Virus record (IMG/VR): IMGVR_UViG_2671180460_000013
DNA from: a virus
Lineage: Duplodnaviria > Heunggongvirae > Uroviricota > Caudoviricetes
Length of the DNA stretch: 26,013 nucleotides
Strand: one strand, 5' to 3'
Below, piece after piece: positions 1-25,355 of the stretch. The notes beneath the pieces were generated by a model that was not told the DNA's origin, did not search any database, and worked only from the letters and a program-made list of their open reading frames with translations. Each line of letters opens with the position of its first letter. Positions within the stretch are counted from its first letter, which is position 1. Both the position numbers and the translations under genes were made by a program.

Positions 1-381
1 TTATGAGTTCTGGAATTCTTCTGCCCGTCTTTCCAGTTCAGCCATGAAAGAAGTTTTGGCTTTTTCGTGAGCATCTGGGGCCATGATGCTGATGATTTGT
101 ATATTGTCATAATCCATCCAGTGCCTTGTATAAACCAGATAGATATTTGAAGTTCTGTCTATTTGGGCTTTGCTTTTCTTCCATGGTGGTTCTGACGGTA
201 GTCTTATGTGTAATTTATATACAAACGAACCACATAATCTTGCGTTATCTTCCCACTGCCCTTCATTGCCGAATCTGTCAGGGAGAACACCGGTATTTAA
301 CCAGTTTTCCAGAGCCTTTCCGTAAACTTTTGCAATGTCCTGGTATTCAACATCTTTATGAATGCTTACTTTGCTTGCCAT
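1..381 (-). CDS. hypothetical protein (126 aa), distal gene of a two-gene cargo operon; faint RelE/ParE-like C-terminal pattern, function unassigned
   Basis: ORF track 1..381. ATG at 379-381 overlaps the TGA of the upstream gene (TGATG), stop TAA at 1-3. Sampled lines are AT-richer than the structural genes. Confidence 0.5.
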   Translation of the reverse strand: MASKVSIHKDVEYQDIAKVYGKALENWLNTGVLPDRFGNEGQWEDNARLCGSFVYKLHIRLPSEPPWKKSKAQIDRTSNIYLVYTRHWMDYDNIQIISIMAPDAHEKAKTSFMAELERRAEEFQNS

Positions 382-1007
382 CAGGAAAACTCCGGTGCCG
401 GGAGTCCCATGTTTTTATGCTCGGCAATAATCATTGCTTTCACATTTCCGTCAGACAGCGTATTGCCCAGGCTGGTTGTTTTGTCTGGTGCGGTGCTTCG
501 TTTGATGGTGTTGATGGCATCACGAGCGATAAACTCCCCCTGCGCAATTGCCCGACCAAAACGAACCAGTTTATTGCGATAGGCGATTCTTTGCTCCAGG
601 CTATCCGGATACATTTTTGCCAGGTTATCCGGATCCATTACAATTTTGACAGCCTCTTTAACACGGGTGTGCTGCTTAATTGACTCTTCGCATATTTTTA
701 TGATTTTTGCGGTTTTGTCAGTAAATAGTGCTCCCTTACCTCTGTTCTGTCGTTCTTCAATGACTGCATTGAGCGCGGCACGCATGTTGTCATTCAGCCC
801 GTTGATATATTCAATAGCTTCTTCGAGAGGCAGAAACACCTGACCATCATGATGCTCAAATGTAAGCATTGAAACCACTCTGGCGTGTGTCGCGGATTCA
901 ATAACTGTTGTTGGTAGTATCGTGCTTTTAGCTGGCACCGGAGCCAGTGATGCTGTCAGAGCTGTAGTAATAGCAGCAATGGCAGCAGACTTTGATTTTC
1001 GTTTCAT
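381..1007 (-). CDS. exported protein of unknown function (Sec-type signal peptide), about 208 aa
   Basis: ORF 381..1019. Internal ATG at 1005-1007 is preceded by GGAG. N-terminus MKRKSKS followed by hydrophobic AAIAAITTALTASLA and a VPA cleavage-like site. Confidence 0.55.
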   Translation of the reverse strand: MKRKSKSAAIAAITTALTASLAPVPAKSTILPTTVIESATHARVVSMLTFEHHDGQVFLPLEEAIEYINGLNDNMRAALNAVIEERQNRGKGALFTDKTAKIIKICEESIKQHTRVKEAVKIVMDPDNLAKMYPDSLEQRIAYRNKLVRFGRAIAQGEFIARDAINTIKRSTAPDKTTSLGNTLSDGNVKAMIIAEHKNMGLPAPEFS

Positions 1008-1544
1008 AATGCACTCCACAGGTTGATGTGTTCAGCATATCGCAAATAGCAGCTTGTATAAAGAAACGCCACATCAGCAGCGATCGTTTTACGCGCTTTT
1101 CTTCTTGTTGCGATCCTTTTTTCAGTTTTATTTTGGAGCTTAATTTTGTGCGGGCCGCGCCGTGTCTGCCTTCTTTGTTTGATGGTTGTTTGACGCGATC
1201 CTTTCGTGATCGTTTTTTTGTCTCGCGTAAAGTATGAAAACTCTTTTAATATCATGCGGTTTTATTGCTCCGGCCATTTGTGCGATCGTAAAAACCACTT
1301 TGAAAACTGCAAAAAATTTCAAAGCGTGAAATTTCAGATCTTCGCTTTTCCCTCAGTTGCTGCGCGGGCTGGCGGTCATTTTTGCACGGCAGAAAACTGA
1401 AAAAGTGTTTCGACACAAAACCCGCGGGTTGGAGGGGGTAGCGCGGTTTACGTTACCTCACGCTTTACGTCACGCCGTTTGCGCGGTGTGCGCATACAGC
1501 GCCAGAATGGCATGCAGAACGATTAATCAGGTGGCAGATATGAA

Positions 1545-1606: not shown

Positions 1607-3304
1607 TCAGGCGATAATGTCGCCGTATTTTTCGCGCAGGCTCGTCGCCTGCAGGGCATCTGCGGCAAGTTCGCTGCTGTTCATTGGTGTGCCAGTGTTG
1701 CTATGGGTGTGGTTTGCTGTATGTGTGGCCAGTAATTGAATCAGATCCAGAATATCGATCAGCAACGTCAGCAGGTTAAGCCCTGACTTTTCCCGCGAGC
1801 CGCCGCGACCAATAAATACTGTCGGAGCGGTAAACTCCAGACCGCCGTCCGCTCTGCATGTTCTGCGGCCTCCCACGTTTTCGGTGAGGTCATGCTCAAT
1901 GGTGGATATCGCCCCTTTGAGTTGAGTCAGCAAATCCTGCGCTACCATCTGGATATGCTCACCGGCTGCGATCGCATAATTGCCGGTAGTAAGGTGTTCT
2001 GTCTGGCCTGTCATCAGTTTGCTGGTACCAAGAACACTGGTTATGTCGTTTGCCTGGACTGTTGTTGTTCTGGTTGTTGTTGTGCGTTCTTCCTGATCGC
2101 TGTTAATGGTTCGCCTGGCTGAATGCTCCCTGATTTGCTGGTCGGTTTCTCTGTGCCAGCTTCCGTCAGTCGTGACGCGCTGAAACACTTCTGCGCGCTG
2201 TTGCTGCAGCTGTTCGCCGGGCTTTACATCAGGCAGGTTATGGCCTGCGGGTAAGATTTGCCTGATGACAGGTTTATCCGGTCGTCCTTCAATGTTGGAT
2301 ATTTCCACGATGGTGCCAGCCGGCGGGTAGGCAAAACATCCCGCCTCGCTACCAGCCATCGGGACGGGGAGTGGTACTGCCGGATAAACAGGCGTATCGC
2401 TTTTATCGTTGCCGTTCTCATCAAGCAGTTGCACATCGACGGCGTAGCGTGGGCGGAAACTGTCGGCAACATCGCCCAGGGTGACGGATTCCGTTGGGGC
2501 AATGACGCGCGCCAGCCTGGTATGTAGAGTACCGCTGGCCAGTTCCGGGAACTGTGTTTCCATCTGTCTGCGTAATGGTGATTTGGAAACAGGGCTACCC
2601 GTGGTGGTAAGGCGTTCCCATGTCAGGGTCATTTTCTCGTTGTTGAGGGCTACACGGGTAATGCGCCCGGCTGGAAGGTTCACGCCCGGTCGCACAGTTT
2701 CCATAAACATGATGTCGATGCTGTTTCCGCCGCTTTGCCCGAGTGTGTACTGTTGCGGAATATCCGGCATGGTAATACTGGCAAACCGTGAGTCCGATGC
2801 GCTTCCCACAAATACGGAACCGTCCGGCATTGGATGCCAGACGTAATCGCTGATACTGAATGCTCGCCCCAGCTGGCTAAGCAGTTGTGTTCCGCTGCCG
2901 CTGTGGGTGATGTAAGGTGTCGGAGTACCGACGTAATCCGCGTCTGGCGTGATGAAAACGATGCCGCTTTGTTTACCCAGACTATCGAGTACATCCCGTA
3001 ACGTTGGATGTTGCATGGAGCAGGGGAAATCAAAATCCAGCACGGCAGCTGCTTCACGGATAAAAAGGCGGCGTGAGCCATTTTCGGCGGGTTGATCGCG
3101 TTCAATGTAGCCGGAGAAATAGCGCCATGCCTCACCATTACGGCCGAGATCAATTTGTATCATTGCGCCGGCAAGACTTTTTTTGGGTGGCAGATTATTA
3201 ACAGAAATGAAGCCACGACCGGCAGCATTCAGGGTAAGAACAAGGCTGATATCGGCAATTTCCGCCAGCTCGCCATTAATCATACAGCGTTGGATTAATT
3301 TCAT
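1607..3304 (-). CDS. baseplate central spike protein (gpV / gp5-like OB-fold and His-rich tip) with a ~300-aa N-terminal extension, possibly a hub-spike fusion
   Basis: 565 aa. Motif AGTIVEISNIEGRPDKPVI resembles the OB-fold signature of P2 gpV / VgrG. C-terminal THTANHTHSNTG resembles the HxH metal-binding apex of spike proteins. ATGA overlap with the upstream gene; AGGAGG RBS. Confidence 0.5.
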   Translation of the reverse strand: MKLIQRCMINGELAEIADISLVLTLNAAGRGFISVNNLPPKKSLAGAMIQIDLGRNGEAWRYFSGYIERDQPAENGSRRLFIREAAAVLDFDFPCSMQHPTLRDVLDSLGKQSGIVFITPDADYVGTPTPYITHSGSGTQLLSQLGRAFSISDYVWHPMPDGSVFVGSASDSRFASITMPDIPQQYTLGQSGGNSIDIMFMETVRPGVNLPAGRITRVALNNEKMTLTWERLTTTGSPVSKSPLRRQMETQFPELASGTLHTRLARVIAPTESVTLGDVADSFRPRYAVDVQLLDENGNDKSDTPVYPAVPLPVPMAGSEAGCFAYPPAGTIVEISNIEGRPDKPVIRQILPAGHNLPDVKPGEQLQQQRAEVFQRVTTDGSWHRETDQQIREHSARRTINSDQEERTTTTRTTTVQANDITSVLGTSKLMTGQTEHLTTGNYAIAAGEHIQMVAQDLLTQLKGAISTIEHDLTENVGGRRTCRADGGLEFTAPTVFIGRGGSREKSGLNLLTLLIDILDLIQLLATHTANHTHSNTGTPMNSSELAADALQATSLREKYGDIIA

Positions 3305-3876
3305 GTTTTCCCTTCCTCCTTCACGCTCCCGATGCCAATCCAGTCCAGCCCGGAGCCAATACCATCATTGATATTTTTCCAGAAAGTCTCCTGGGTATTC
3401 ATTCCTTTATCTGGTGCCTGCTCACTGCCGTTCTGTGTCTGCTGCTTTGCGATTGTTTTCTGTGAGCCACTGCGTGCCGATGCTTTTTCCGGCACGCTTA
3501 ATTTTTCCCTGAGGGTAAAGGTGACCTGCCAGTGCATCTTGCCCTGTTGTTCCGTGGCATCGATGCCGCCCGAAAAAACACCCTGTCGCATATTAATCGC
3601 CTTAGCAGTAGCGTTGGCGATGCGGTATGTTTTTTTGGCTCCGTTACTTTCTGTTGCCTCCGCAAGCTGAAAAATACGGGTCAAAATAGCTTCATCGTTA
3701 AAATCAATAACCCCCGACACGCGCAGCTCTTTGGCCTTGTTTCCCTGCTGGGCGCTCGTGGTGCTGGTTGATTGTCCGGACATATCTTTGTCCGGTAGTT
3801 GCATGGTGGCGCTGACGGTGATGTTGCGCAGCAGAATGGCTTCCCCGTCAAGCGCAAGGACAATCATCTGGGTCAT
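3301..3876 (-). CDS. hypothetical tail/baseplate-associated protein (191 aa)
   Basis: ORF with ATG at 3874-3876; its stop overlaps the start of the spike gene (ATGA). Sits inside the tail operon; no recognisable motif. Confidence 0.4.
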   Translation of the reverse strand: MTQMIVLALDGEAILLRNITVSATMQLPDKDMSGQSTSTTSAQQGNKAKELRVSGVIDFNDEAILTRIFQLAEATESNGAKKTYRIANATAKAINMRQGVFSGGIDATEQQGKMHWQVTFTLREKLSVPEKASARSGSQKTIAKQQTQNGSEQAPDKGMNTQETFWKNINDGIGSGLDWIGIGSVKEEGKT

Positions 3877-4570
3877 GTAGTGCTTCCCTTAGTGATGAGA
3901 GATTATCGCCGACGAACAGCATCACAGCTGTAAAAACCCACTCGGGGTGTGGGATGTTTTTTTGTATCAGCACTGCGGCCTGGCTAAGGGCTCCCTTGTA
4001 GCAAAAGCGCCACACCGGGCAAAATTTTTGCCGGAGTGCTGCCTGCTGATCAGCGATTTCCTGTAGTGCTTTATCTCTCGCATTCATGAACTGACGCAAC
4101 GATGATGACAATGTTTCCGGTGATGTGACGGCAGGAGTGGCTGCCTGTGCAATGGTTGCTGCCAGTGACATGCTGCGAGTGGTCTGTGTCGATAGCATTA
4201 TCGGTTCCGGAAGTGATGTTAGCGGTCTGGCGGGGATTTGCATTCTGCTGATGGCCAGTGAAAGCTGGCTGGAGATCATGCGGGACATTCGTCCCACCTC
4301 TGGCAACGGAAATGCGCCTGAAAATTGCCTGGCGAGTGATAGAAACTCGTCGGCAGACGGGGCGCAAAATAACAGCGCCACAACGTCTTTTTCTGTGTTT
4401 TCTGTCAGATAAGGTAAAAGCGCGGATACAGCATTATCCGGGCTGAGGTAACGCCCTGATGGTGTAATGTTTCCCGTATTTTCTGACCATGGGTGGAGGC
4501 AAACCATTGAACAGGTAATAGCTATGGGGGCTGGTCGCAAAACAGAGCGTATCCATGTTGAATTGTTCAT
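3848..4570 (-). CDS. hypothetical protein (240 aa), Ser/Thr/Ala-rich with a Cys-containing C-terminus; possible accessory or chaperone of tail fiber 2
   Basis: ATG at 4568-4570 with AGGAAG RBS, 24 nt after the fiber-2 stop. Lacks the conserved C-terminal motif of classical tail fiber assembly proteins. Confidence 0.4.
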   Translation of the reverse strand: MNNSTWIRSVLRPAPIAITCSMVCLHPWSENTGNITPSGRYLSPDNAVSALLPYLTENTEKDVVALLFCAPSADEFLSLARQFSGAFPLPEVGRMSRMISSQLSLAISRMQIPARPLTSLPEPIMLSTQTTRSMSLAATIAQAATPAVTSPETLSSSLRQFMNARDKALQEIADQQAALRQKFCPVWRFCYKGALSQAAVLIQKNIPHPEWVFTAVMLFVGDNLSSLREALHDPDDCPCA

Positions 4571-4594
4571 TTGTTCTTCCTGTGTGTCCGGATA

Positions 4595-6157: not shown

Positions 6158-6694
6158 TTAATTCTCGCTAATATTCTGCGGTAATTCTGGCCATACAATT
6201 GCGGCATACGATGATTTATCTGTAACCTGACTGAATGTCATCTCTCGTAACGTTTTTGTATAAATACGCCAGACTTTCAGCTTTTCCTTGTCTTCATCGC
6301 TGATTAACCCCAGCAGCAAGTCTGTCTTTTTATCGGATATTTCCCGTTCAGCAATCTCTATAAAACGCGCACGCTCCGACTCCGCCCGCTGTCTGTAGTC
6401 AACAGGAACAGGAAGAACTGCGCCATCTTTATAATACCAACGTGCTTCAATACAAAAACCTTCGGGTAATTCATCCGCTTCCACAATGGTAAAACCTGCC
6501 GGATAAAGCCGGGATACGTCTTCCGCCATTGAATAAATAACGCCGGTTTCAGGATGCGTGCACAGCTTGTACTTCTTCGTGAATTTATCCAGTGATTCAT
6601 AAAAATCCTGCCCGTCTTCACTACGGAAATACTGAATGCCTTCACCATAAGGCATATCTTCAGGGTAGTAACGCGTAACATTTCTGAGCTCCAT
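6158..6694 (-). CDS. tail fiber assembly protein (P2 gpG / Tfa-like)
   Basis: Start moved to the internal ATG at 6692-6694, preceded by AAGGAG. KDGAV motif and C-terminal WPELPQ resemble P2 gpG as recalled. Immediately downstream of fiber 1. Confidence 0.8.
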   Translation of the reverse strand: MELRNVTRYYPEDMPYGEGIQYFRSEDGQDFYESLDKFTKKYKLCTHPETGVIYSMAEDVSRLYPAGFTIVEADELPEGFCIEARWYYKDGAVLPVPVDYRQRAESERARFIEIAEREISDKKTDLLLGLISDEDKEKLKVWRIYTKTLREMTFSQVTDKSSYAAIVWPELPQNISEN

Positions 6695-6708
6695 TGTTTT
6701 CTCCTTAA

Positions 6709-8406
6709 TTAACCTGACACAGAACGCCATGCGCCATTTATATAAATCTGAGCCTGTTTGTAATACACGCCACCGATATTATCCGCAGAGTTGCTCCCGG
6801 TATCCTGAACCAGAATACCGGACAGGGTGCAGCCAGACGGTGCGCGGAACGTCCAGCTGTGTTCGTTCCCTCCCGGGTTGTAAAACACCTCACTGGTGTA
6901 CTGAAAATTCTGCACGCCTCCTGTTCTGGTCTGGTAGCGTTCATCGAAATTGCCATAATCAGTTGGTGTTACCCGCCCTGAAACATTCACTTCCCGGTTA
7001 CTTTGTAACGCGCCATTCTGAAAACGGAATATGTGCTGACCATTGGCATAAACATCCAGCAGGCCGTCACCATTCTGTTTCAGGCCGGTATCGTTATCCC
7101 CGAAAGCAATTGAGTTACCGCCCAGCGCGTTCTGAACGCCGATACCAAGTGCACCATTGACCTGCGAACCACCGCCAACAGACACTTTATGCGACATGGA
7201 TATTTCACCCGTCCGCAGATTAATAGTGAACGGTCGAAGTGGACCAATATCGCCATTCTCGCCCTGACCTTCACTGGTAGGGATAAGGTGCAGGCACTCT
7301 TCCGAACGACGAAAAATCAGACCAAAGGCTTCGTCGAAAATTCGCAGCGCATTAATACCACGGATTTTCAGCTCCCCGGTCATGGTATCGCCGTCGCGCT
7401 CAACAGCGCCTTTTGCCTTATCCATTACGATTTTTACTGCCTTTGATGTGGCGGCACGGTCTTCTGCGTCACTGTCGGTGTCATTACTGTACTGCGCAAA
7501 ACCCTTTTCGTTCAGTGTGGCATCCGGATGTCTGCGGGATTTTTCGTGTTCTGCCAGCGCATTGCTTTGTTCCTCGTCGGGTGTTTCCGGGCGCAGATCC
7601 TGTGGGCCGTCTCCTGTCATTTTTGCAAGTGGCGCGACAAAGTGTCGGAAGCCGTTATCGTCTGTATAGGACGCATGTTCCTGGCGGGCGCAGAACGTAA
7701 AAACGGTATTCCATTCGCCGGTAACAAATCCCTGCCAGCTTGCATCAATCCAGAGGGTATCCCCGACCGCAGCCGGCAGGCTGTAAGGTTCGCGCAGACT
7801 GACGCGCAGACCTCCCACATAACCCACGCCGGCGGCAACAGTAGCGGTACCGTCCTGATAGCTGACCTGAAAACCATCCCCCAGAAAAGCGGCTTCACCG
7901 TAGTGATCAAACGCCAGCAGCCGGCGGGCCTCATCCATTCCTGCAAGGCGTGCAGTGAAATCAATCTGCCAGACATCAGCGCTGACATCGATATGCATTG
8001 CTGCGGCTGCGCCGTCAAACTCCATGGAAAATGTGCGGATCAGGTTGTTTCCCTGCACGCCGTTCGCTGTTTTAATTTTTTGCTGACGAGGTGTGTGTGC
8101 AATCATGCAGAGCACGCCGCTTTCTTCGTTCAGCAGACCGATCCAGTTGTATTCGAAGTCGCCGACTGTCGTGTCCAGAATGATGGAAAACGCGGTCGCG
8201 TTCGGCGACAGGAGGCCGTACTGGGTGACCGGCGCACGATACTGAATCATGGATTCATCAGGGAGTATCTCATCGCGGGGGATCTCTGCGGATTCATCCT
8301 GTCCCGGAATATATGCAAAAACAAATGTATCCGGTCGCGCAGGTTTTCCACTGATGATCTGATTTGCGCACCAGTGTTCGTATTGTTCAGTAATAATCGT
8401 GCTCAT
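6709..8406 (-). CDS. tail fiber protein 1 (P2 gpH-like)
   Basis: 565 aa. AEHEKSRRHPDATLNEKGF, GDNDTGLKQNGDGLLDVYANGQHIFRFQNG and C-terminal YINGAWRSV match recalled P2 gpH blocks. ATGA overlap with the upstream gpI-like gene. Confidence 0.85.
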   Translation of the reverse strand: MSTIITEQYEHWCANQIISGKPARPDTFVFAYIPGQDESAEIPRDEILPDESMIQYRAPVTQYGLLSPNATAFSIILDTTVGDFEYNWIGLLNEESGVLCMIAHTPRQQKIKTANGVQGNNLIRTFSMEFDGAAAAMHIDVSADVWQIDFTARLAGMDEARRLLAFDHYGEAAFLGDGFQVSYQDGTATVAAGVGYVGGLRVSLREPYSLPAAVGDTLWIDASWQGFVTGEWNTVFTFCARQEHASYTDDNGFRHFVAPLAKMTGDGPQDLRPETPDEEQSNALAEHEKSRRHPDATLNEKGFAQYSNDTDSDAEDRAATSKAVKIVMDKAKGAVERDGDTMTGELKIRGINALRIFDEAFGLIFRRSEECLHLIPTSEGQGENGDIGPLRPFTINLRTGEISMSHKVSVGGGSQVNGALGIGVQNALGGNSIAFGDNDTGLKQNGDGLLDVYANGQHIFRFQNGALQSNREVNVSGRVTPTDYGNFDERYQTRTGGVQNFQYTSEVFYNPGGNEHSWTFRAPSGCTLSGILVQDTGSNSADNIGGVYYKQAQIYINGAWRSVSG

Positions 8407-9038: not shown

Positions 9039-10219
9039 GACCCCACCTCCACGATAAGGGATTCCAGGCGAGGCACAGCCAGGTCGCTGAGAATATCCGG
9101 AAGGGAAAACGTGACCGATTCCACCTGTGGAAATACCTGGTGGATCTCTTCGCCCAGTCGGGACATGCTGAAACGGCTGTACGGCCATGTTTTCTGAACG
9201 TCATAATCGCTGTTTTCGCGAAACGCACAGCGGACCAGATTCTCTACGTTGCGTAATAAAGCCTGTATCTCTTCAGCGTTGAGGTTCAGCGTTGCATACA
9301 GCCAGAGTGTCACGGTCAGGGCATGGCGCGTTTCAGGCATGGAAAAACAACGCAAATCATCGCCGTGTCCGTGATGACCTTCATCGTTAATAAATGCGTT
9401 TACTGCATCAACGAACGGTTCGGATGCGATGCCGGTATCCAGCAGAATGTAAGCATTTGCTGTGCCGGGGCCGCGTGGTGCGTCATGCAAAAAATAGATG
9501 CGGTCGGCACTGATACCTGCAACGCCGGCAATTAATCCCCGGTAAACAGCATCTGTGTGATAAGCGCCGGCAAGATTAAACTGATTGCGAACACGATCAC
9601 GCAGCTCGTCATCGCTTTCTTCGTTGGCACCCGGTGTGGTCAGCCAGTTTTCATCGTTCTCAACGCCGGCAATACCATCAATCGCCACCGGAAGGATGCG
9701 GTAATATCCCGGCGCAAGGTTAAAGCCGGCTCCGGCCTGTTCCGCAGAAACATCGATGTTCATGCTGAGTGTTCCTGCCGGAATAACGGTATCCCTGACA
9801 ACGGTCAGCGTATAAATCACGCCGTTAATGCGTTCTGTCTGAATCTGCGTACCGGCCGGCACGGTAACTGTGCGATCAATGTCGTTTTTGGTGAAACGAA
9901 TCACGCCGGCTGCGTGCGTGGCGGCCTTGCGTTGCAGGTTTACCGCCCAGGCAAAAACATCAACGAATACACCGCTGGCATCAGCCAGAAACAGGTTTTT
10001 CATCACCACATTAACCAGCGCATCTTTCAGCCACATCACGGGCTTTGTGGTGATGGCTGTAATCAGTCGCCAGAACGGCGACATGCGGGATGTGTTGGTA
10101 ATAAGCCCTTCGTCTTTGACAATGGCTTCAAATTCAGCGCGCGCCTGTTCTTCGGTTACCGGCATGCCATTATCAGCCAGAATGCGCTCGTAATCTGCGG
10201 TAGGTTTGCCGTTAATCAT
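9035..10219 (-). CDS. baseplate wedge protein, Baseplate_J family (P2 gpJ / T4 gp6-like)
   Basis: About 394 aa; ESDDELRDRV region resembles recalled P2 gpJ. ORF-track start at 10222 is TTG; the adjacent ATG at 10217-10219 is used. Confidence 0.65.
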   Translation of the reverse strand: MINGKPTADYERILADNGMPVTEEQARAEFEAIVKDEGLITNTSRMSPFWRLITAITTKPVMWLKDALVNVVMKNLFLADASGVFVDVFAWAVNLQRKAATHAAGVIRFTKNDIDRTVTVPAGTQIQTERINGVIYTLTVVRDTVIPAGTLSMNIDVSAEQAGAGFNLAPGYYRILPVAIDGIAGVENDENWLTTPGANEESDDELRDRVRNQFNLAGAYHTDAVYRGLIAGVAGISADRIYFLHDAPRGPGTANAYILLDTGIASEPFVDAVNAFINDEGHHGHGDDLRCFSMPETRHALTVTLWLYATLNLNAEEIQALLRNVENLVRCAFRENSDYDVQKTWPYSRFSMSRLGEEIHQVFPQVESVTFSLPDILSDLAVPRLESLIVEVGS

Positions 10220-10562
10220 CAAGAGATACCGTAAAAGTCAGGTGGTCAAAAAAATCTTCGGTGTGGGCGCTAATCAGCAGGCGACCAGAAAGCGGGGTTT
10301 CTTCTGTCACACTGACCGTGCCAGGTGTGATGCGCTCATCATCTTCAATCAGTAGTGTCATCTGCATTATGAGGTCGGCACGAAGCGTCGGGCTTTTTTC
10401 AGCCAGCAGGCGCGTTGCCAGTCCGCTCTCAATGATGGCGTGCTGGCAGTCCTGGGCAATACTTTCCCTGTTGTTGCATAACACCGGCTCACTGGCGCTG
10501 TTCAGCGTGAGATTGCGACCGGTGATAAGCAAATCAATGTAAAGCGGTTTATCAGTATGCAT
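10212..10562 (-). CDS. small baseplate protein, tentatively GPW / gp25-like
   Basis: Internal ATG at 10560-10562 with GGAG RBS gives 116 aa, overlapping the tape-measure stop. Size and position match P2 gpW; motif match is loose. Confidence 0.45.
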   Translation of the reverse strand: MHTDKPLYIDLLITGRNLTLNSASEPVLCNNRESIAQDCQHAIIESGLATRLLAEKSPTLRADLIMQMTLLIEDDERITPGTVSVTEETPLSGRLLISAHTEDFFDHLTFTVSLDD

Positions 10563-12648
10563 GTAGCTCCATCCACTCGTTGAGACGGGCAGGAGATGGA
10601 TCCTGCACGTTGACGTTGACCACACGACGGGAGTTATCGATTGTGGTCTGGTTTTCGTTGTTGTTCTGCATCTCTGCCGCAATGCCACCCGGCCCCGCGC
10701 TGATGGCTTTACCACCGGTTAATACGGAGCCTTCGCCACTTCCTGTGCTTTCTGATGTGCCGATGTTAACGCCGGGGATCATGTTGAGTTTGTCCACAAT
10801 CCAGCCCCATGAATCACTGAAGGACTGTTTCACCAGTTCCCAGAGGTTACTGAAAATGTTCAGGATGCCGCCGGCGATATCCTTCAGGGCGTCCAGAGGT
10901 GAATGCGTGGAAAAATAGTTAACCAGTGCATTCCAGCCGTCCTGGATTGTGTTCCATGCATTGCCGAACCATGCCCCCATACTGCCGACCATTTCAGCCA
11001 CCCACTGAAAGGCGGCGGTGTCCATCAGTGCGGCTTTGATTTCATCCCAACGGGTGATCAGGAAATAAATGCCCACACCCAGCGCAGCCAGTGCCAGGAT
11101 GATTAATGTGATGGGGCTGAAAAGTAACTGTGTTGCAATTGCAGCTCCGCTGGTGACTGCGGTGTAGATTTTCATTGCTATGCCGGCGGCACCCAGCGCA
11201 ACAGAATAAAGCCAGAGTCCGGCGCGCTGTAATTTCAGCAGCGCCAGCTGAATTTTTGCTTTGACGTTGTATGTTCCCATAGCAATGGACATGGCCAGAT
11301 ACAGCGCCCTGACCGTTCGGGCAACTACAGTGAATGCCCACATGGTAGCCGTCAGTGTGCGTTTCAGCAGAATGAGAATCTTCAGAGGTGTAACTGCTGC
11401 CAGCCAGACCAGCCGCAGTCCTGTCCAGACAAACTTCGCCACACCCACCATAATGTTGACAACGGCACCCACTGCGGCAATGCCCAGCAGGGCGGCAGAC
11501 AGTAAACCAATAGCCCGTGTGATATTGGGATACAGACGTAACCAGGCAACAAAGGATTTACCGCCTTCGTTGCTTTTCTGGATAAACGGGTACAGAACAG
11601 GCAGCAACTGCGTGCCGATTTCGATGCGAATGCCGTTAATAATTGCGGCGGCCTGTTCCCATGGATCAGCCATGGCCTGCGCCATTTCGACAGCCTTATC
11701 CATCCCTTTGATATTGCCCAGCGTGGCGATATTCTTTTCAAGTCCGCCAATGTCCGCATTGAGTAATTTAATCATGGCCACAGCTTCATCGGAGCCAAAG
11801 GCGCTTTTCAGCAAATCGGAATCAGCCACTTTTGACAGATCACCAAATTTGCCCCTGATAAGTTTCATGATCTCGACAACACTTTTCATCGTGCCGTTTT
11901 TATTCACGAAATTAAGCCCCAGCTTTTTCTGGGCGCTGCCTACTGCGGCAAGAAATGCCTTGTACTTTGTCCCGGCCTCGCTGCCACTCATGGTGGCCTG
12001 CAGTTGTCCCAGCACGGCGAACTGTTCAGCCGCATCAATACCGGCCGCTTTTGCACTGGCACCCAGCGTGGTGAACGCCGCTGACATGTTATCGCCGGTT
12101 GTTTTAAACATTTGCACGGCGGTGGCGGTTTGCCCGGCGACCTGCTCCACCCATTTGCTTTTTCCCATGGCATCAGCCTGGTCTTTAAAGATGCCGTACA
12201 TGGTGCCCATGTAGGCGGTAATGGTCTGGCTGCTGGATTTGGTTGCTGCTGCCACCGTTGCTGATGCGGTGGTGAAGCGGGACAGCTCATCGTCAGTTAA
12301 CCCGGCAATGGCTGACTGGATGTCGTAAGAAGCACGCACAAAATCCTGCGCAGCCCCGCCGTATTCCATAGTGAAATCAACGGCGGCGCGGCTGAGTTTA
12401 CGCAATCCGGACTCTGCGACGCCCAGTGATTTCACCTCACCGAGCGCCCTGTCCATTTCAATGGCTGGCATCAGTGCCCCCTGAATGGCTGCACCCACTC
12501 CCCAGAGCGCAGCGCCTCCGGTAGCAATGTCCCGAAAGGCTCCCCGACTTGTTGCAGCAAATCCCTGAACCTGTCGCCCGGCTGCACGCAACGGCCTTGT
12601 CAGGCGGTCTGTCAGTTCAAGAAGTAATTCAAGGCGCTGTTGTGACAT
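10552..12648 (-). CDS. tail tape measure protein
   Basis: 698 aa, Ala/Gly-rich with a long hydrophobic central segment. Directly follows the frameshifted tail chaperone pair; its ATG overlaps the stop of the frameshift product. Confidence 0.8.
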   Translation of the reverse strand: MSQQRLELLLELTDRLTRPLRAAGRQVQGFAATSRGAFRDIATGGAALWGVGAAIQGALMPAIEMDRALGEVKSLGVAESGLRKLSRAAVDFTMEYGGAAQDFVRASYDIQSAIAGLTDDELSRFTTASATVAAATKSSSQTITAYMGTMYGIFKDQADAMGKSKWVEQVAGQTATAVQMFKTTGDNMSAAFTTLGASAKAAGIDAAEQFAVLGQLQATMSGSEAGTKYKAFLAAVGSAQKKLGLNFVNKNGTMKSVVEIMKLIRGKFGDLSKVADSDLLKSAFGSDEAVAMIKLLNADIGGLEKNIATLGNIKGMDKAVEMAQAMADPWEQAAAIINGIRIEIGTQLLPVLYPFIQKSNEGGKSFVAWLRLYPNITRAIGLLSAALLGIAAVGAVVNIMVGVAKFVWTGLRLVWLAAVTPLKILILLKRTLTATMWAFTVVARTVRALYLAMSIAMGTYNVKAKIQLALLKLQRAGLWLYSVALGAAGIAMKIYTAVTSGAAIATQLLFSPITLIILALAALGVGIYFLITRWDEIKAALMDTAAFQWVAEMVGSMGAWFGNAWNTIQDGWNALVNYFSTHSPLDALKDIAGGILNIFSNLWELVKQSFSDSWGWIVDKLNMIPGVNIGTSESTGSGEGSVLTGGKAISAGPGGIAAEMQNNNENQTTIDNSRRVVNVNVQDPSPARLNEWMELHAY

Positions 12649-21985: not shown

Positions 21986-23012
21986 AAAGAAAAAATCCCC
22001 CGTGTTACACGATGGCGTGGCAAAAAAAACAGCCAGCAAAATGACTTTTATTGAATTTGGTGACCCGGAACCGGTCGCTGCATGGGGCTGTTATTACGGC
22101 TCGCTCTGGGATGGCTATAACGGCTGGTACACGCCGCCCATTGAGCGCATGGATCTCGCCATGTTGTCCAATATCGCACCGTATCACGGCGCGGTATTGC
22201 GTGCGCGCGTCAATATGATCATGCAGGGTTTTCGGGGTGGCGGTGGTATGACACACGCCGCCATGGCGGCAGCAGTAACCAATCTGCTGATATTCGGGGA
22301 TATGGGGTTGCTTAAAGTGCGCAATGGCTTCGGTCGAGTGGTGCGCCTGCATACGTTACCTTCTCTGTACCTGCGGCGTAACAACGAGGGTGGCACGGTG
22401 ATTGTGCAGGCGGCACTGGAAGATCTCGTTTACCCGCCAGGCGAAGTGGTGTTCGTGGCCGTTTATGACCCGCAACAGCAGGTTTACGGTGTCCCGGATT
22501 ATATTCACGGGATGGAATCCGCCATGCTGAATGTGGATGCCACCCGCTTTCGCCGCAAGTATTACAAGAACGGCGCACATCTTGGTTATATCCTGTATTC
22601 CAGTGACCCGGACATGGATCCCGAGCTCGAGGCGGAATTCCGTAAAAAGATAGAGGCGTCAAAAGGGGCGGGCAATTTTAAATCCATGTTTATCAATATA
22701 CCGGGCGGAGACAAAGAAGGCGTTAAGGTGATCCCTATCGGGGATTCAGGTACAAAAGATGAGTTCCTGAATATAAAAACCATCAGTGCCCAGGATCAGC
22801 TTGTTGCGCACCGTTTCCCACCCGGACTTGCCGGCATCATTCCCGCAAATACGGCCGGGCTTGGTGACCCACTGAAATCCCGCGAGGCATATTACAGGGA
22901 TGAGGTTATCCCGATGCGCCGCCTGATTATGGAGGGGATCAACAGCGACCCGGATATCAGACGACTGGGGGAGGTGAAATTTATTCTTGATTTTGATGAA
23001 CCCATGGAGTGA
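21978..23012 (+). CDS. Q: portal protein, P2 gpQ-like
   Basis: 344 aa, the same length as P2 gpQ as recalled. Its ATG overlaps the last codons of P (GATGAGTAA). Confidence 0.85.
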   Translation: MSKKKKSPVLHDGVAKKTASKMTFIEFGDPEPVAAWGCYYGSLWDGYNGWYTPPIERMDLAMLSNIAPYHGAVLRARVNMIMQGFRGGGGMTHAAMAAAVTNLLIFGDMGLLKVRNGFGRVVRLHTLPSLYLRRNNEGGTVIVQAALEDLVYPPGEVVFVAVYDPQQQVYGVPDYIHGMESAMLNVDATRFRRKYYKNGAHLGYILYSSDPDMDPELEAEFRKKIEASKGAGNFKSMFINIPGGDKEGVKVIPIGDSGTKDEFLNIKTISAQDQLVAHRFPPGLAGIIPANTAGLGDPLKSREAYYRDEVIPMRRLIMEGINSDPDIRRLGEVKFILDFDEPME

Positions 23013-23077
23013 TGTGCGGTATGGGGAAAGAGCGGGTAAAATCGGTGGCAGTAAAACGCTGTTCCGGGAGGTGGAAA

Positions 23078-23335
23078 ATGCGCAGACAGAAAGCGCGATG
23101 TCATTGCTGCGGTGCACATGCAGTGATTGAGAAAACAGCCTGGAAAACCGATCAGTTTGCTGATGTGTATTACCGTTGCACCCGTCTCGAGTGCGGACAT
23201 ACCTGGGTGATGAATCTGACCTACTCGCACACACTGGTGCCCAGCGGGCTGGAGAATGGTGTGTTAAAGCTGTTGATTGAGCGGATGCGTCCGGAAGAAA
23301 AACAAATGGCTCTGGAGTTGTTGCAGGCCGGATAG
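23078..23335 (+). CDS. ogr: Ogr/Delta-family zinc-finger late transcription activator (putative)
   Basis: Internal ATG at 23078 with GGGAGG RBS gives 85 aa. CHCC ... CTRLEC gives the CxxC ... Cx4C spacing of P2 Ogr. Followed by a strong terminator. Confidence 0.7.
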   Translation: MRRQKARCHCCGAHAVIEKTAWKTDQFADVYYRCTRLECGHTWVMNLTYSHTLVPSGLENGVLKLLIERMRPEEKQMALELLQAG

Positions 23336-23355: not shown

Positions 23356-23406
23356 AACCCGGAACGGGCGCACAAAGAATTTGCGCACCCGTTCCGGGTT
23401 TTCTTA
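23356..23406 (+). terminator. intrinsic terminator between convergent ogr and the Rrf2/par operon (possibly bidirectional)
   Basis: 13-bp perfect stem AACCCGGAACGGG / CCCGTTCCGGGTT around a 19-nt partly self-complementary loop, followed by TTTTCTTATTC on the plus strand. Confidence 0.6.
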
Positions 23407-23763
23407 TTCAATGGCAGACAACTGATAATTTGTGTCTTCCTGCAGGCTGGTTAAAGAAATATTATCCAGTGCAGCCAGAATAACGTGCTGTGTATATAAT
23501 CCGGAACATTTCATTGCCCGGACAATATCACCAACACTGTAATTTTCTTTTGTCGGGATATATCCACCACCCGGGCCGCGTGTGGCTTTTACCAGGCTAC
23601 TTTCCCGTAAATATCTGAATATTTGCTCCAGATATGACAGTGAAACGGTTTCTTTGCTTAATTGCCGGAGCGAGATTGGCTTTCCGGTGTACTGTTTCAC
23701 AAATTTAATCATTACCATAACTGCAACTGATGCACGCTGGCTTCCGGAATTATCTTTCATCAT
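23404..23763 (-). CDS. Rrf2-family transcriptional regulator (short; lacks the three-Cys cluster ligand set)
   Basis: Start at the ATG doublet 23758-23763 with GGAAG RBS. ISLRQLSKETVSLSYLEQIFRYLRESSLVKATRGPGGGY matches the Rrf2 HTH / GGGY signature. Only one Cys in the C-terminal half. Confidence 0.7.
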   Translation of the reverse strand: MMKDNSGSQRASVAVMVMIKFVKQYTGKPISLRQLSKETVSLSYLEQIFRYLRESSLVKATRGPGGGYIPTKENYSVGDIVRAMKCSGLYTQHVILAALDNISLTSLQEDTNYQLSAIE

Positions 23764-23774
23764 GATTACTTCCA

Positions 23775-24062
23775 TTAATGGCATAAATTGATGGAGCGGG
23801 TCAGTGAATAAAGAGGCAATACATTCCATCCCTTAGAGCGCCAGCTGTCTGCAACATCTTTACTTCTTGTTATCGCCGGTATTCCAATAGGATTATTTGC
23901 GTGCATCCATGCCACTGGCTCTGCTTCCAGTGATGCAAGTGCGATTTCCAGTGCGATTAACATATTGTGATCGTCTTCATCAAGACCGAACGGGATGTCT
24001 TCGCGCCACGATTTAAACTCTGTGATTTTACGTTGTAACCATTCTTTGGTAATGGTGGACAT
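23775..24062 (-). CDS. hypothetical protein (95 aa) co-transcribed between parR and the Rrf2 gene
   Basis: ORF-track start at 24080 is GTG. The internal ATG at 24060-24062 has an AGGAG RBS 6 nt upstream. No recognisable motif. Confidence 0.5.
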   Translation of the reverse strand: MSTITKEWLQRKITEFKSWREDIPFGLDEDDHNMLIALEIALASLEAEPVAWMHANNPIGIPAITRSKDVADSWRSKGWNVLPLYSLTRSINLCH

Positions 24063-24076
24063 AGTTACTCCTGTTT

Positions 24077-24391
24077 TCACTTCGGGAAAAACGCCTGAAT
24101 ATTTTTTTTCACCTGCTGCATATGGGTGGCGCTGTCTGCTGCTGGTTGCGCCGGTTTTTCAGGCTGTACTGGTAGCGGTGGCATCCGTATTTCGTCTTCT
24201 GACCATTCTGCCAGCGAATACGCCAACGCGGGGTGGCGTTTTATAAGAGCCAGTCCGGCCAGAAAAGCCGCGCGTTGTGCGCGGCTGCGTTCGGAGGCTG
24301 GCAGGCTGTCGAGGTAACTGCACGCCTCCCGTTCGCTCTTGACGACGGCGGGCTTCAGATAGAAACTTATCCGTCTGGTTGGTGTCGTCAT
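24077..24391 (-). CDS. parR: ParR-like centromere-binding protein (ribbon-helix-helix type, type II partition)
   Basis: Internal ATG at 24389-24391 with an AAGGAG RBS inside the parM 3' end. RISFYLKP...LDSLPASERSRAQRAAFLAGLAL parallels recalled R1 ParR (IAFKLNPD...LDSIPQGERSRLNRAALTAGLAL). Confidence 0.75.
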   Translation of the reverse strand: MTTPTRRISFYLKPAVVKSEREACSYLDSLPASERSRAQRAAFLAGLALIKRHPALAYSLAEWSEDEIRMPPLPVQPEKPAQPAADSATHMQQVKKNIQAFFPK

Positions 24392-24395
24392 TGAT

Positions 24396-25355
24396 TTACT
24401 CCTTGTCCATTGCGTACAGCCCATTAACCAGAGCAAACTGTGGCACCCCGTCCGCGATGAAAGTCGCATTAACTCCGCAGGCTTCGCGGATAGCGGGTGC
24501 CACAATCTCCGCTCCTCCACCTACAACCATCACCCGCCCGTAACCCGAAAAACCCGCCAGCGCGCGGATCACGCGTTGTTTCAGTGTTTCTTCCTTTTCA
24601 CGAATAACAGCCATCAGGCTGGCGTAATGTGCGTTATTGTGGATGTGCTGGCGCAGCCAGGCTTCATCGTGGCGATGTTCGATAATGGTATTAGCGATGT
24701 GGTGACTGGTACGCATACCGTTGGTGGCCATCACCGACAGCACGGCATCGGCCATCAGGGAAACGCCTACGTGTGGATCGCAAAACACCTGGCTGATACC
24801 TGCCAGTTGCCCCTGAACCTTTGCCACATCCAGCGTGGTTCCGCCCAAATCCACAATCAGCAGGGATTCAAACGGACTCATGTCAGCCAGTGCTTTAAAG
24901 CCTGCCGGAATGGATTCAGGCATAACCCGCACGTTACGGATAGTGAATGCCTCACCGTTCTGGTACTCCACCGGGCGCATGACGTTCGCTTTTTTGCGGT
25001 TGATGTTGGCCATGTCCGGCTGTGCGTTTGTGTCGAAATACTCGCTCAGTGGCAGGGTGACAACCACATCCACCTCCTGTGGCGTGATGCCTGATTTGAC
25101 CAGCGCGTGATGAATGGCAATTACATTCACATCGCTGTACTGGTATTGCGTGTCGGTCGTCTGGACAAAGCGATCGCTGACCGGATCAAAACCATAGCGC
25201 ACGCCATCAAGCATGTAGTTCGCGGGCTGCGTGCCACCGAACGGCGCAGACCATTCCGACTTGAAGCTGTTCGGGCTGATGGCGTTGCGGCGTTCGCCGT
25301 TCTCAGTCCATGCCAGCTTGATGTTGGTGGAGCCGTCATCGATACAAATTTTCAT
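24396..25355 (-). CDS. parM: ParM / StbA-family actin-like segregation ATPase
   Basis: 319 aa. MKICIDDGSTNIKLAW, ISPNSFK, YSDVNV..HHAL, VMPESIPAG, DLGGTTLD and VVGGGAE blocks align by eye with recalled R1 ParM along most of the protein. Confidence 0.9.
   Translation of the reverse strand: MKICIDDGSTNIKLAWTENGERRNAISPNSFKSEWSAPFGGTQPANYMLDGVRYGFDPVSDRFVQTTDTQYQYSDVNVIAIHHALVKSGITPQEVDVVVTLPLSEYFDTNAQPDMANINRKKANVMRPVEYQNGEAFTIRNVRVMPESIPAGFKALADMSPFESLLIVDLGGTTLDVAKVQGQLAGISQVFCDPHVGVSLMADAVLSVMATNGMRTSHHIANTIIEHRHDEAWLRQHIHNNAHYASLMAVIREKEETLKQRVIRALAGFSGYGRVMVVGGGAEIVAPAIREACGVNATFIADGVPQFALVNGLYAMDKE

Follow-up and report, generated by a model that had tools for sequence, protein, structure and literature searches.

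Genomic setting and layout of the three genes

The window (the whole 26,013-nucleotide stretch of DNA analyzed in this study) comes from an E. coli prophage of the HP1 subgroup of Peduoviridae and covers its late, structural module. Immediately downstream of its second tail fiber gene lie three genes, here called orf33, orf34 and orf35 after the families to which they belong (Table 1). The remaining genes of the window are HP1-type as well (DUF2586 sheath, HP1_Orf24, TMP, DUF2590, Baseplate_J, Tail_P2_I and P2-type head genes), and a true tail fiber assembly gene (Tfa) is located at positions 6158-6730, encoding 190 aa with a Caudo_TAP match in Pfam (E 1.2e-16). No Pfam match to gpV, gpU, gpX/LysM or gpD was found anywhere in the window, nor does the window hold a spare small open reading frame able to encode any of them. 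Megablast comparison of the region with the phage collection and PLSDB plasmids gave no match, a related-locus search of genome contigs (query P0265) returned nothing, and an Rfam scan of the window was likewise empty.

Table 1. Positions of the orf33-orf34-orf35 genes and their translational signals in the window
Feature	Position	Strand	Description
orf33-family gene	3848..4570	minus	240 aa, ATG start; HP1-subgroup tail-operon protein
orf34-family gene	3301..3876	minus	191 aa, ATG start; predicted tube-fold baseplate protein
orf35-family gene, third of module	1607..3304	minus	565 aa; hub and central spike fusion
Shine-Dalgarno AGGAAG of orf33	4576..4581	minus	5 nt upstream of ATG
Shine-Dalgarno-like AAGGGAAG of orf34	3883..3890	minus	inside orf33 3' end, 6 nt upstream of orf34 ATG
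Overlap of orf33 3' end and orf34 5' end	3848..3876	minus	29 nt
Overlap of orf34 stop and orf35 start (ATGA)	3301..3304	minus	stop and start codons overlap

The initial annotation had noted credible ribosome-binding sites and translational coupling into the tail operon, in keeping with the Shine-Dalgarno sequences, tight packing and gene overlaps listed in Table 1; 24 nt separate the fiber 2 stop codon from the orf33 ATG. The overlap between orf33 and orf34 is kept in HP1, K139, ESSI2_ev040 and vB_YenM_324, where it spans 13-35 nt. In comparison with an E. coli relative, dN/dS values were 0.21 for orf33, 0.03 for orf34 and 0.08 for orf35, indicating purifying selection. Because they are under such selection and have homologues in many phages (tblastn located orf33 in 26 phage records and orf34 in 75), orf33 and orf34 are real genes.

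The order Tfa-orf33-orf34-orf35 was found in HP1, HP2, K139, phi3, YenM_324, ESSI2_ev040, SW3, Pmp6 and two IMG/VR contigs, and is constant among the HP1-type phages checked, irrespective of fiber cassette; in ACA1, the module is preceded by a diversity-generating retroelement cassette rather than a Tfa gene. This pattern bears on the leading one of the three roles initially guessed for the two proteins, by which the 240-aa protein would be a chaperone of a new type serving only fiber 2, a fiber that lacks its own Tfa gene. The position of orf33 immediately downstream of fiber 2 resembles that of tail fiber assembly proteins (Caudo_TAP, lambda gpK / P2 gpG type), which are also encoded downstream of a fiber gene, and Pfam identified no Caudo_TAP gene adjoining fiber 2. 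However, orf33 directly follows Tfa in the single-fiber phages HP1, HP2, K139, ESSI2_ev040, YenM_324, SW3 and phi3, and the E. coli relative L014 has other genes in the second-fiber slot, with orf33-35 still 89-98% identical (protein, tblastn). In addition, orf33 overlaps orf34 and not the fiber gene, is kept independently of fiber type with no co-variation, and has a distant homologue in virions (PMC10612066, Table S2). The 240-aa protein was correctly described as lacking the tail fiber assembly motif, as it has no Caudo_TAP or other Pfam match, and a dedicated fiber 2 chaperone is very unlikely and is rejected on the gene order.

orf34 and orf35 encode baseplate proteins

The 191-aa orf34 protein matches Pfam PF25759 (HP1_ORF34, 'baseplate complex protein') with a score of 181.5 bits (cutoff 27; E 1.6e-53), and its residues 2-174 align almost end to end with positions 2-176 of the 180-position model. 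It is 37-50% identical to phage homologues in this family, to which HP1 orf34, K139 orf38 and ACA1 gp47 belong, and its gene occupies the same slot between orf33 and orf35 at the end of the HP1-type tail operon; it has a slightly longer C-terminal tail than other members and otherwise differs in nothing essential. The AF2 model contains a tail-tube fold domain at residues 1-125 (core pLDDT ~90), in which residues 28-46 form a hairpin that is highly conserved but unstructured, followed by a flexible C-terminal tail with one helix (158-179; pLDDT <50). With this clear profile hit and fold, the initial description of the 191-aa protein as unassignable no longer holds; a hit of this kind is what the initial annotation had itself named as refuting it.

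Judging from the model, orf34 is most likely a tube-fold baseplate protein of the centerpiece, or tube-initiator, class. Its equivalence to P2 gpU rests on fold, size and position, since no sequence similarity is detectable: hhalign probabilities were below 1% against P2 gpU (0.16%), Mu gp43 and the window's own tube protein, and Pfam gave neither a Phage_P2_GpU (PF06995) match at E<=1 nor a LysM match. An HHpred link between orf34 and gpU, at 15% identity, was called 'uncertain' by the authors of the ACA1 study (PMC10612066). Homologues of orf34 are labeled 'nucleoid DNA-binding protein' or 'adenine glycosylase' in the records of phi3, PV94, SMHB1 and YenM_324 and in a UniRef cluster. A function in DNA binding or repair is nevertheless extremely unlikely, as no match to glycosylase or HU/IHF families was obtained from Pfam or NCBIfam, the gene lies within a tail operon, and the tube fold contradicts both labels. 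The assignment made here therefore corrects the public annotation of a widespread prophage module.

The third gene, orf35, encodes a gpD-like baseplate hub fused to a gpV-like central spike, so that what was initially called the spike gene does contain a spike but is in fact a fusion with the hub. The protein matches PHROG 2258 'baseplate protein' (E 1.9e-232), its residues 310-445 give weak matches to Phage_base_V, Gp5_trimer_C, VgrG and Pvc8, and its C-terminus carries the apex motif HTANHTHS; BLASTP against P2 gpD returned nothing. For HP1, too, the orf35 protein is given as a fusion of gpD and gpV in footnote d to Table S1 of PMC10612066.

orf33 belongs to a narrow family with an orphan fold

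Sequence comparison places the 240-aa protein in one homologous family with HP1 orf33 and K139 orf37. It matches PHROGs 31292 (E 5.4e-73) and 1677 (E 4.9e-39), tblastn matches include HP1 orf33 (2e-10), HP2 orf33 and the ESSI-2 group, and alignment with K139 orf37 reached an hhalign probability of 99.3%. A YLSPxNA motif, a conserved N-terminal Trp and an alpha/beta core are shared with the HP1 orf33 family (UniProt P51737, K139 orf37, ACA1 gp46), whose members are also encoded directly upstream of orf34. The E. coli lineage of the 240-aa protein lacks the ~60-aa N-terminal extension of a 290-300-aa subfamily that includes K139 orf37 (297 aa). Overall, orf33 is the fastest-evolving core protein, with 23-35% identity compared to 34-63% for orf34, orf35, J, I and W.

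The family is narrow and has no Pfam model. Searches with orf33 alone against Pfam, NCBIfam and PDB sequences gave no match, with no Pfam family at E<=1, and a PDB sequence search with a 59-sequence orf33 profile was equally negative. A Pfam scan of 59 diverse members (E<=1) gave no recurring family and no LysM/Phage_tail_X match, and hhalign probabilities against P2 gpU, P2 gpX (0.25%) and Mu gp43 were all below 1%. The AF2 model (pLDDT 82.9, pTM 0.79) has an alpha/beta fold with a beta-alpha-alpha-beta segment at residues 60-127, for which Foldseek found no match in BFVD (best E 0.58) and no structural neighbor in the PDB. The initial view that the 240-aa protein is unassignable thus stands for its function, for which Pfam, NCBIfam, PDB and BFVD gave no match, but not for its family (HP1 orf33, PHROG 1677/31292). 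Public records list orf33 as 'hypothetical', it is wholly unannotated in phage phi3, and 'structural protein' is the label, of unstated basis, that its homologue carries in the vB_YenM_324 record. A search of the literature on vB_YenM_324, K139 orf37 and PV94 proteomics found nothing on orf33.

The composition of orf33 (A 11.7, L 11.2, S 10.8, P 8.3 and T 6.2%) makes its earlier characterization as Ser/Thr/Ala-rich only mildly true. The C-terminus does contain CPVWRFCY and DPDDCPCA as reported, though this Cys-rich region is the least conserved block in the family and is specific to the lineage of the 240-aa protein. A functional Cys motif was rejected, since the region is not conserved.

Virion evidence and the role of orf33

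The distant orf33 homologue of ACA1, gp46, was detected by mass spectrometry in purified virions with 2 spectra, and its SC/MW value of 0.09 compares with 0.08 for gpW, 0.05 for gpJ and 0.06 for gpV (PMC10612066, Table S2). The link between gp46 and the orf33 family is a partial profile match (hhalign 93% probability, 68 columns). The authors report no unexpected proteins in the preparation, in which the orf34 homologue (ACA1 gp47) was undetected (PMC10612066); this last result counts against the module proposed below. It is probable that orf33 is a low-copy virion protein of the baseplate, and of the three roles initially guessed for the two proteins, 'missing baseplate components' has the most support. 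Two observations count against this reading: the evidence from virions comes down to the two spectra of gp46, whose own link to the family is partial, and the fast evolution of orf33 would be compatible with an accessory protein or a chaperone as well.

There are two further potential explanations for orf33. The protein may be a non-structural assembly factor (a chaperone or scaffold for the hub, spike or centerpiece, or for baseplate closure) that is released by tail completion, with orf34 and orf35 unchanged. Its evolution is faster than that of the structural core, its dN/dS is higher (0.21), it has no likeness to known structural baseplate proteins, its overlap with orf34 would fit a co-translated partner, and the two ACA1 spectra could be carry-over. 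However, after normalization gp46 is as abundant as genuine baseplate proteins, no unexpected proteins were reported from that preparation, and the label of the vB_YenM_324 homologue, whose basis is not given, also points to a structural protein; we therefore regard an assembly factor as rather unlikely. Alternatively, orf33 may be an ejected or cargo protein, or an internal tail protein associated with the tape measure, that is delivered into the host; cargo was the remaining one of the initial guesses. This would be consistent with a low copy number in virions and a fold unlike those of known baseplate proteins, and the conserved N-terminal MxW motif together with residues H26, W28, Y41, S43 and N46, invariant in closer members, could mark a binding or active site. 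Yet no enzymatic or effector family was matched among the 59 diverse members, the sequence shows no obvious signal peptide or transmembrane segment, and the fixed slot between the fiber and centerpiece/hub genes, with the orf34 overlap, points to baseplate assembly, making delivery into the host quite improbable.

A proposed central-baseplate module

Building on the directly supported elements (both gene identities, the orf34 fold, the gene order, purifying selection and the distant orf33 homologue in virions), we consider it reasonably probable that orf33, orf34 and orf35 form one three-gene module that builds the center of the baseplate; placing orf34 as a ring and giving orf33 any structural role are our inferences. 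Packed closely together where the tail operon has its distal end, the three genes would be translated as a single unit. The orf35 protein would form a trimeric hub fused to a membrane-piercing spike, as the counterpart of P2 gpD and gpV, and orf34 would form a ring on this hub that templates the first tube layer, in the slot taken by P2 gpU, PA0626 and the N-terminal domain of Mu gp43. The hairpin at residues 28-46 of orf34 may line the lumen, while its C-terminal tail and helix may extend to the wedge ring (W-like, J and I proteins). Because HP1-type phages have no LysM protein (P2 gpX/T4 gp53/PA0627) and orf34 appears to have no helical glue domain, orf33, as a low-copy, lineage-specific alpha/beta protein, would probably act as an inner-baseplate linker in trans that connects the hub and centerpiece to the wedges.

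Both orf33 and orf34 are conserved genes of HP1-type tails, and little about them is unusual except that the fold of orf33 is an orphan. HP1-type phages have some of the smallest contractile tails; a search of PDB sequences turned up none of their baseplate proteins, so the structure of such a baseplate has apparently yet to be solved. With a hub and spike fusion, a minimal tube-fold centerpiece and no LysM protein, what is left as a target for cryo-EM is the conserved orf33 with its orphan fold, whose place in the particle would test the universality of the 'minimal baseplate' parts list.

Comparison with known contractile tails

The tail-tube N-terminal domain of orf34 is common to the centerpiece/ripcord class (P2 gpU, pyocin R2 PA0626, Pa193 gp38/gp39, the Mu gp43 N-domain, Pam3 gp17 and the phiCD508 LysM-tube protein), with which it has no sequence or profile similarity. 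Centerpiece architecture has been described in terms of a tube domain, a helical glue domain and LysM BW4 (PMC10811340). Unlike the longer proteins of this class, orf34 appears to have neither a helical-bundle 'glue' domain nor LysM, its model showing only one helix, in a low-confidence tail, and its module lies behind the fiber genes, not directly behind the tape-measure gene. In the HP1 subgroup, a gpX homologue is absent from the list in the ACA1 paper, and gpU was found by HHpred only (PMC10612066).

A more tentative proposal, which we hold to be possible but doubtful, is that the HP1-subgroup baseplate is a minimal one without the LysM 'wedge 4', in which orf33, with its unseen fold, ties the hub and centerpiece to the wedges instead. 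If true, orf33 would be a new class of core baseplate component, while the literature calls LysM wedge 4 universally conserved. At 240-300 aa, compared to ~67 aa for LysM wedge 4, orf33 would resemble it in position and logic only. Among the core P2 tail components, LysM wedge 4 (P2 gpX, T4 gp53, PA0627) alone lacks an HP1-type counterpart, and among the HP1-type core tail genes orf33 alone lacks one in P2, so the two may have been functionally swapped.

Identity and Genomic Setting of the orf33, orf34, and orf35 Genes

The 240-aa and 191-aa minus-strand genes, here called orf33 and orf34 after phage HP1, add new members to established families, within a phage type that is itself known. Both exist as the initial annotation describes (positions in Table). 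The start of orf33, with an AGGAAG Shine-Dalgarno 5 nt upstream of its ATG, lies 24 nt downstream of the second-fibre (518 aa) stop codon; its 3' end contains the orf34 ATG (29 nt overlap), which is preceded by AAGGGAAG, and the orf34 stop overlaps the start of the 565-aa gene (orf35) as ATGA. Compared with an E. coli prophage that is 89-95% identical, dN/dS was 0.21 for orf33, 0.03 for orf34, and 0.08 for orf35, indicating that all three are genuine and under selection. The 240-aa protein contains CPVWRFCY and DPDDCPCA as described, and its enrichment in Ala/Leu/Ser/Pro is only mild.

Table. Positions of the genes discussed in the text.
Feature	Coordinates	Strand	Remarks
YafO-family toxin gene	1-381	-	
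212-aa ORF	381-1019	-	upstream of YafO-family gene, overlapping
orf34, 191 aa	3301..3876	-	ORF
orf33, 240 aa	3848..4570	-	ORF
Second tail fibre, 518 aa	4595-6151	-	tail-collar N-terminal domain, PHROG 33169 C-terminus
167-aa ORF	10212-10715	-	mechanically listed; overlaps tape-measure gene
Ogr/Delta-type zinc-finger late-gene activator	23009-23335	+	Pfam E 1.4e-12
Rrf2-family regulator	23404-23829		
Plasmid_stab_B	24077-24520	-	plasmid-type partition pair
ParM/StbA	24396-25355	-	plasmid-type partition pair

Pfam and PHROG scans showed a complete HP1-type structural module in the rest of the window, with head and packaging genes (P2-type terminase, portal, scaffold, capsid, gpL, gpR, gpS), tail and lysis genes (DUF2586 sheath, HP1_Orf24 tube, M15 lysin, tail assembly chaperone, tape measure), and baseplate and fibre genes (DUF2590, Baseplate_J, Tail_P2_I, fibre 1, the Caudo_TAP tail fibre assembly gene Tfa, fibre 2), after which come orf33, orf34, and orf35. 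The match to DUF2590 (gpW-like sheath initiator) is limited to residues 60-155 of the 167-aa ORF; therefore, the true start is probably near 10562. Neither the sequenced phages nor the PLSDB plasmids contained a near match to the window DNA; among 5,426 complete E. coli genomes, 48 carried it at 92-98% identity, each time in the chromosome. The closest relative, at 98% identity, is what remains of a prophage in E. coli 33-6 (NZ_CP050031): fibre 2, orf33, orf34, and orf35 alone are kept, beside an IS1 element, and all are intact ORFs.

The Ogr/Delta-type gene lies directly downstream of the portal gene, and the partition pair and Rrf2-family regulator adjoin the portal/terminase genes. The pair could maintain the prophage as a plasmid; the tail end's relatives in E. 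coli are, however, exclusively chromosomal, and PLSDB gave no match. Downstream of the tail operon, the YafO-family gene and the 212-aa ORF, which matched no Pfam model, may be a toxin-antitoxin cargo pair; in E. coli 33-6 and E. coli 700481 a Hok/Gef gene occupies this position instead.

orf34 and orf35 Encode Recognizable Baseplate Proteins

The initial annotation regarded both small proteins as unassignable; this does not hold for orf34, which matched Pfam PF25759 ('Bacteriophage HP1 ORF34 baseplate complex protein') over its full length (E 1.6e-53). By tblastn, orf34 occurs in 75 HP1-subgroup phage records, whose hosts include Haemophilus, Pasteurella, Vibrio, Aeromonas, Pseudoalteromonas, Pseudomonas, Salmonella, Yersinia, and Cronobacter. 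AlphaFold2, given a 41-sequence alignment, modelled residues 1-125 as a confident core (pLDDT about 90); confidence is low in the hairpin at 28-46, and the C-terminal tail is flexible and carries one helix. Compared with known proteins, the model scored as follows: the phiCD508 LysM/tube protein (10.3), the diffocin tube (9.8), Pa193 ripcord-1 (9.5), the Pam3 tube initiator (8.9), Pa193 ripcord-2 and the HFTV1 baseplate-to-tube adapter (8.8 each), and Mu gp43 and the pyocin R2 ripcord PA0626 (8.6 each). At the sequence level, orf34 did not detectably resemble P2 gpU, Mu gp43, or the tube protein of the phage itself; in the HP1-subgroup phage ACA1, HHpred equated orf34 with gpU tentatively, flagged as uncertain (PMC10612066, Table S1). 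Segment 28-51, unstructured in the model, is rich in invariant residues (K30, D31, S33, G34, S38, T39, G45, K47, K49, E50, L51), and by analogy with tube proteins the hairpin may become ordered only within an assembled ring, lining its lumen. The tail-tube fold contradicts two database labels for orf34, 'adenine glycosylase' (PV94, SMHB1, and vB_YenM_324 records) and 'nucleoid DNA-binding protein' (Pseudomonas phage phi3, KT887559).

The 565-aa protein, initially annotated as the spike, is a spike to which a hub is fused. HP1 orf35 is described as fused gpD and gpV homologues, which are separate genes in ACA1 (PMC10612066). The 565-aa protein matches a PHROG 'baseplate protein' family across its entire length, with weak OB-fold, gp5-helix, VgrG, and Pvc8 matches at residues 310-445 and an HTANHTHS motif close to the C-terminus. 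In one 323-aa protein (P0357), the N-terminal third of an orf33 of the ESSI-2 type is fused directly to the C-terminal half of orf35, orf34 and the hub domain being absent; a deletion in a degenerating prophage is the likeliest cause.

orf33 Is a Conserved Orphan

The 240-aa protein is the homologue of HP1 orf33. It matched PHROG 31292 (E 5e-73) and PHROG 1677 (E 5e-39), both annotated 'unknown function'; neither Pfam (searched with orf33 and 59 diverse family members) nor NCBIfam yielded a model. Homologues were found by tblastn in 26 phage records, at 35% identity in the ESSI-2 group and 21-26% in HP1, HP2, F108, and Pmp6, and hhalign linked orf33 to K139 orf37 (99.3% probability). One homologue lies in phi3 at about 6318-7000, a stretch without GenBank annotation. 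The family is narrow, as HMMER, run exhaustively against 1.84 billion representative proteins, gave only 230 clusters (E<=1e-3), including a 290-300-aa subfamily extended by about 60 aa at the N-terminus. AlphaFold2 gave a confident model (pLDDT 82.9, pTM 0.79), in which a long helical hairpin (129-179) and a disordered loop (105-123) accompany an alpha/beta core; Foldseek against BFVD found nothing, and profile comparisons with P2 gpU, P2 gpX, and Mu gp43 were negative. Conservation centres on an N-terminal Trp, HPW...YLSPxNA (residues 21-50), and the final two strands, while the Cys-containing C-terminus is the least conserved block and occurs only in the close E. coli/Salmonella lineage.

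The order Tfa, orf33, orf34, orf35 is kept in HP1, HP2, K139, phi3, vB_YenM_324, ESSI2_ev040, SW3, Pmp6, and two IMG/VR contigs, most of which have one fibre plus its Tfa, and the orf33-orf34 overlap (13-35 nt) is conserved too. orf33 is the most divergent core protein (23-35% identity, versus 34-63% for orf34, orf35, J, I, and W-like proteins). The second fibre lacks a dedicated Tfa gene. Its slot holds a 285-aa tail-collar ORF and a 352-aa ORF in E. coli 700481, and is therefore a variable fibre cassette inserted between Tfa and orf33; yet orf33-35 remain 89-98% identical (protein, tblastn). The conserved order, mostly in single-fibre phages, and the swapped slot beside stable orf33-35 rule out a chaperone dedicated to fibre 2, one of the roles initially suggested. 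In ACA1, orf33-orf34 are preceded not by Tfa but by a diversity-generating retroelement cassette with an antireceptor, Avd, and a reverse transcriptase.

A Probable Central-Baseplate Module

The most economical reading, and a well supported one, is that orf33, orf34, and orf35 form a central-baseplate module in which orf34 would be the ring coupling hub to tube. The initial interpretation is partly right: of the roles it proposed, 'missing baseplate components' is retained over chaperone or cargo. In the Milano baseplate, the 'baseplate centrepiece', whose equivalents are Mu gp43 and the pyocin ripcord, combines a tube domain at the N-terminus with a helical domain gluing the wedges, and the LysM 'wedge 4' protein (T4 gp53, PA0627) is termed universally conserved (PMC10811340). 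Unlike the longer centrepiece proteins, orf34 has no helical glue domain. On this reading orf33 would be an inner-baseplate linker, standing in trans for the helical and/or LysM parts of other systems, although the chance of this is somewhat short of even. Mass spectrometry of purified ACA1 virions detected the orf33 homologue gp46 (2 spectra, 6% coverage, SC/MW 0.09, similar to the 0.08 for gpW, 0.05 for gpJ, and 0.06 for gpV) and did not detect the orf34 homologue (PMC10612066, Table S2); the tie of gp46 to the orf33 family is only partial (hhalign, 93% probability over 68 columns). The main rival, a non-structural assembly factor, is rather unlikely, and a role as cargo or as an ejected protein, although possible, has no support.

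Compared with P2, the HP1-type module shares the essential tail genes W, J, I, H, G, FI, FII, E/E', T, R, and S, while orf35 corresponds to a D+V fusion and orf34 to a gpU-like tube-fold protein. No gpX/LysM protein was found in the HP1-type module, nor a spare ORF able to encode one; orf33 is the single conserved gene that the module has in addition. The sole unusual element, and a specific, testable question of modest interest, is orf33, which is conserved and virion-associated, has no detectable structural relative, and occurs in a lineage apparently without a LysM baseplate protein.
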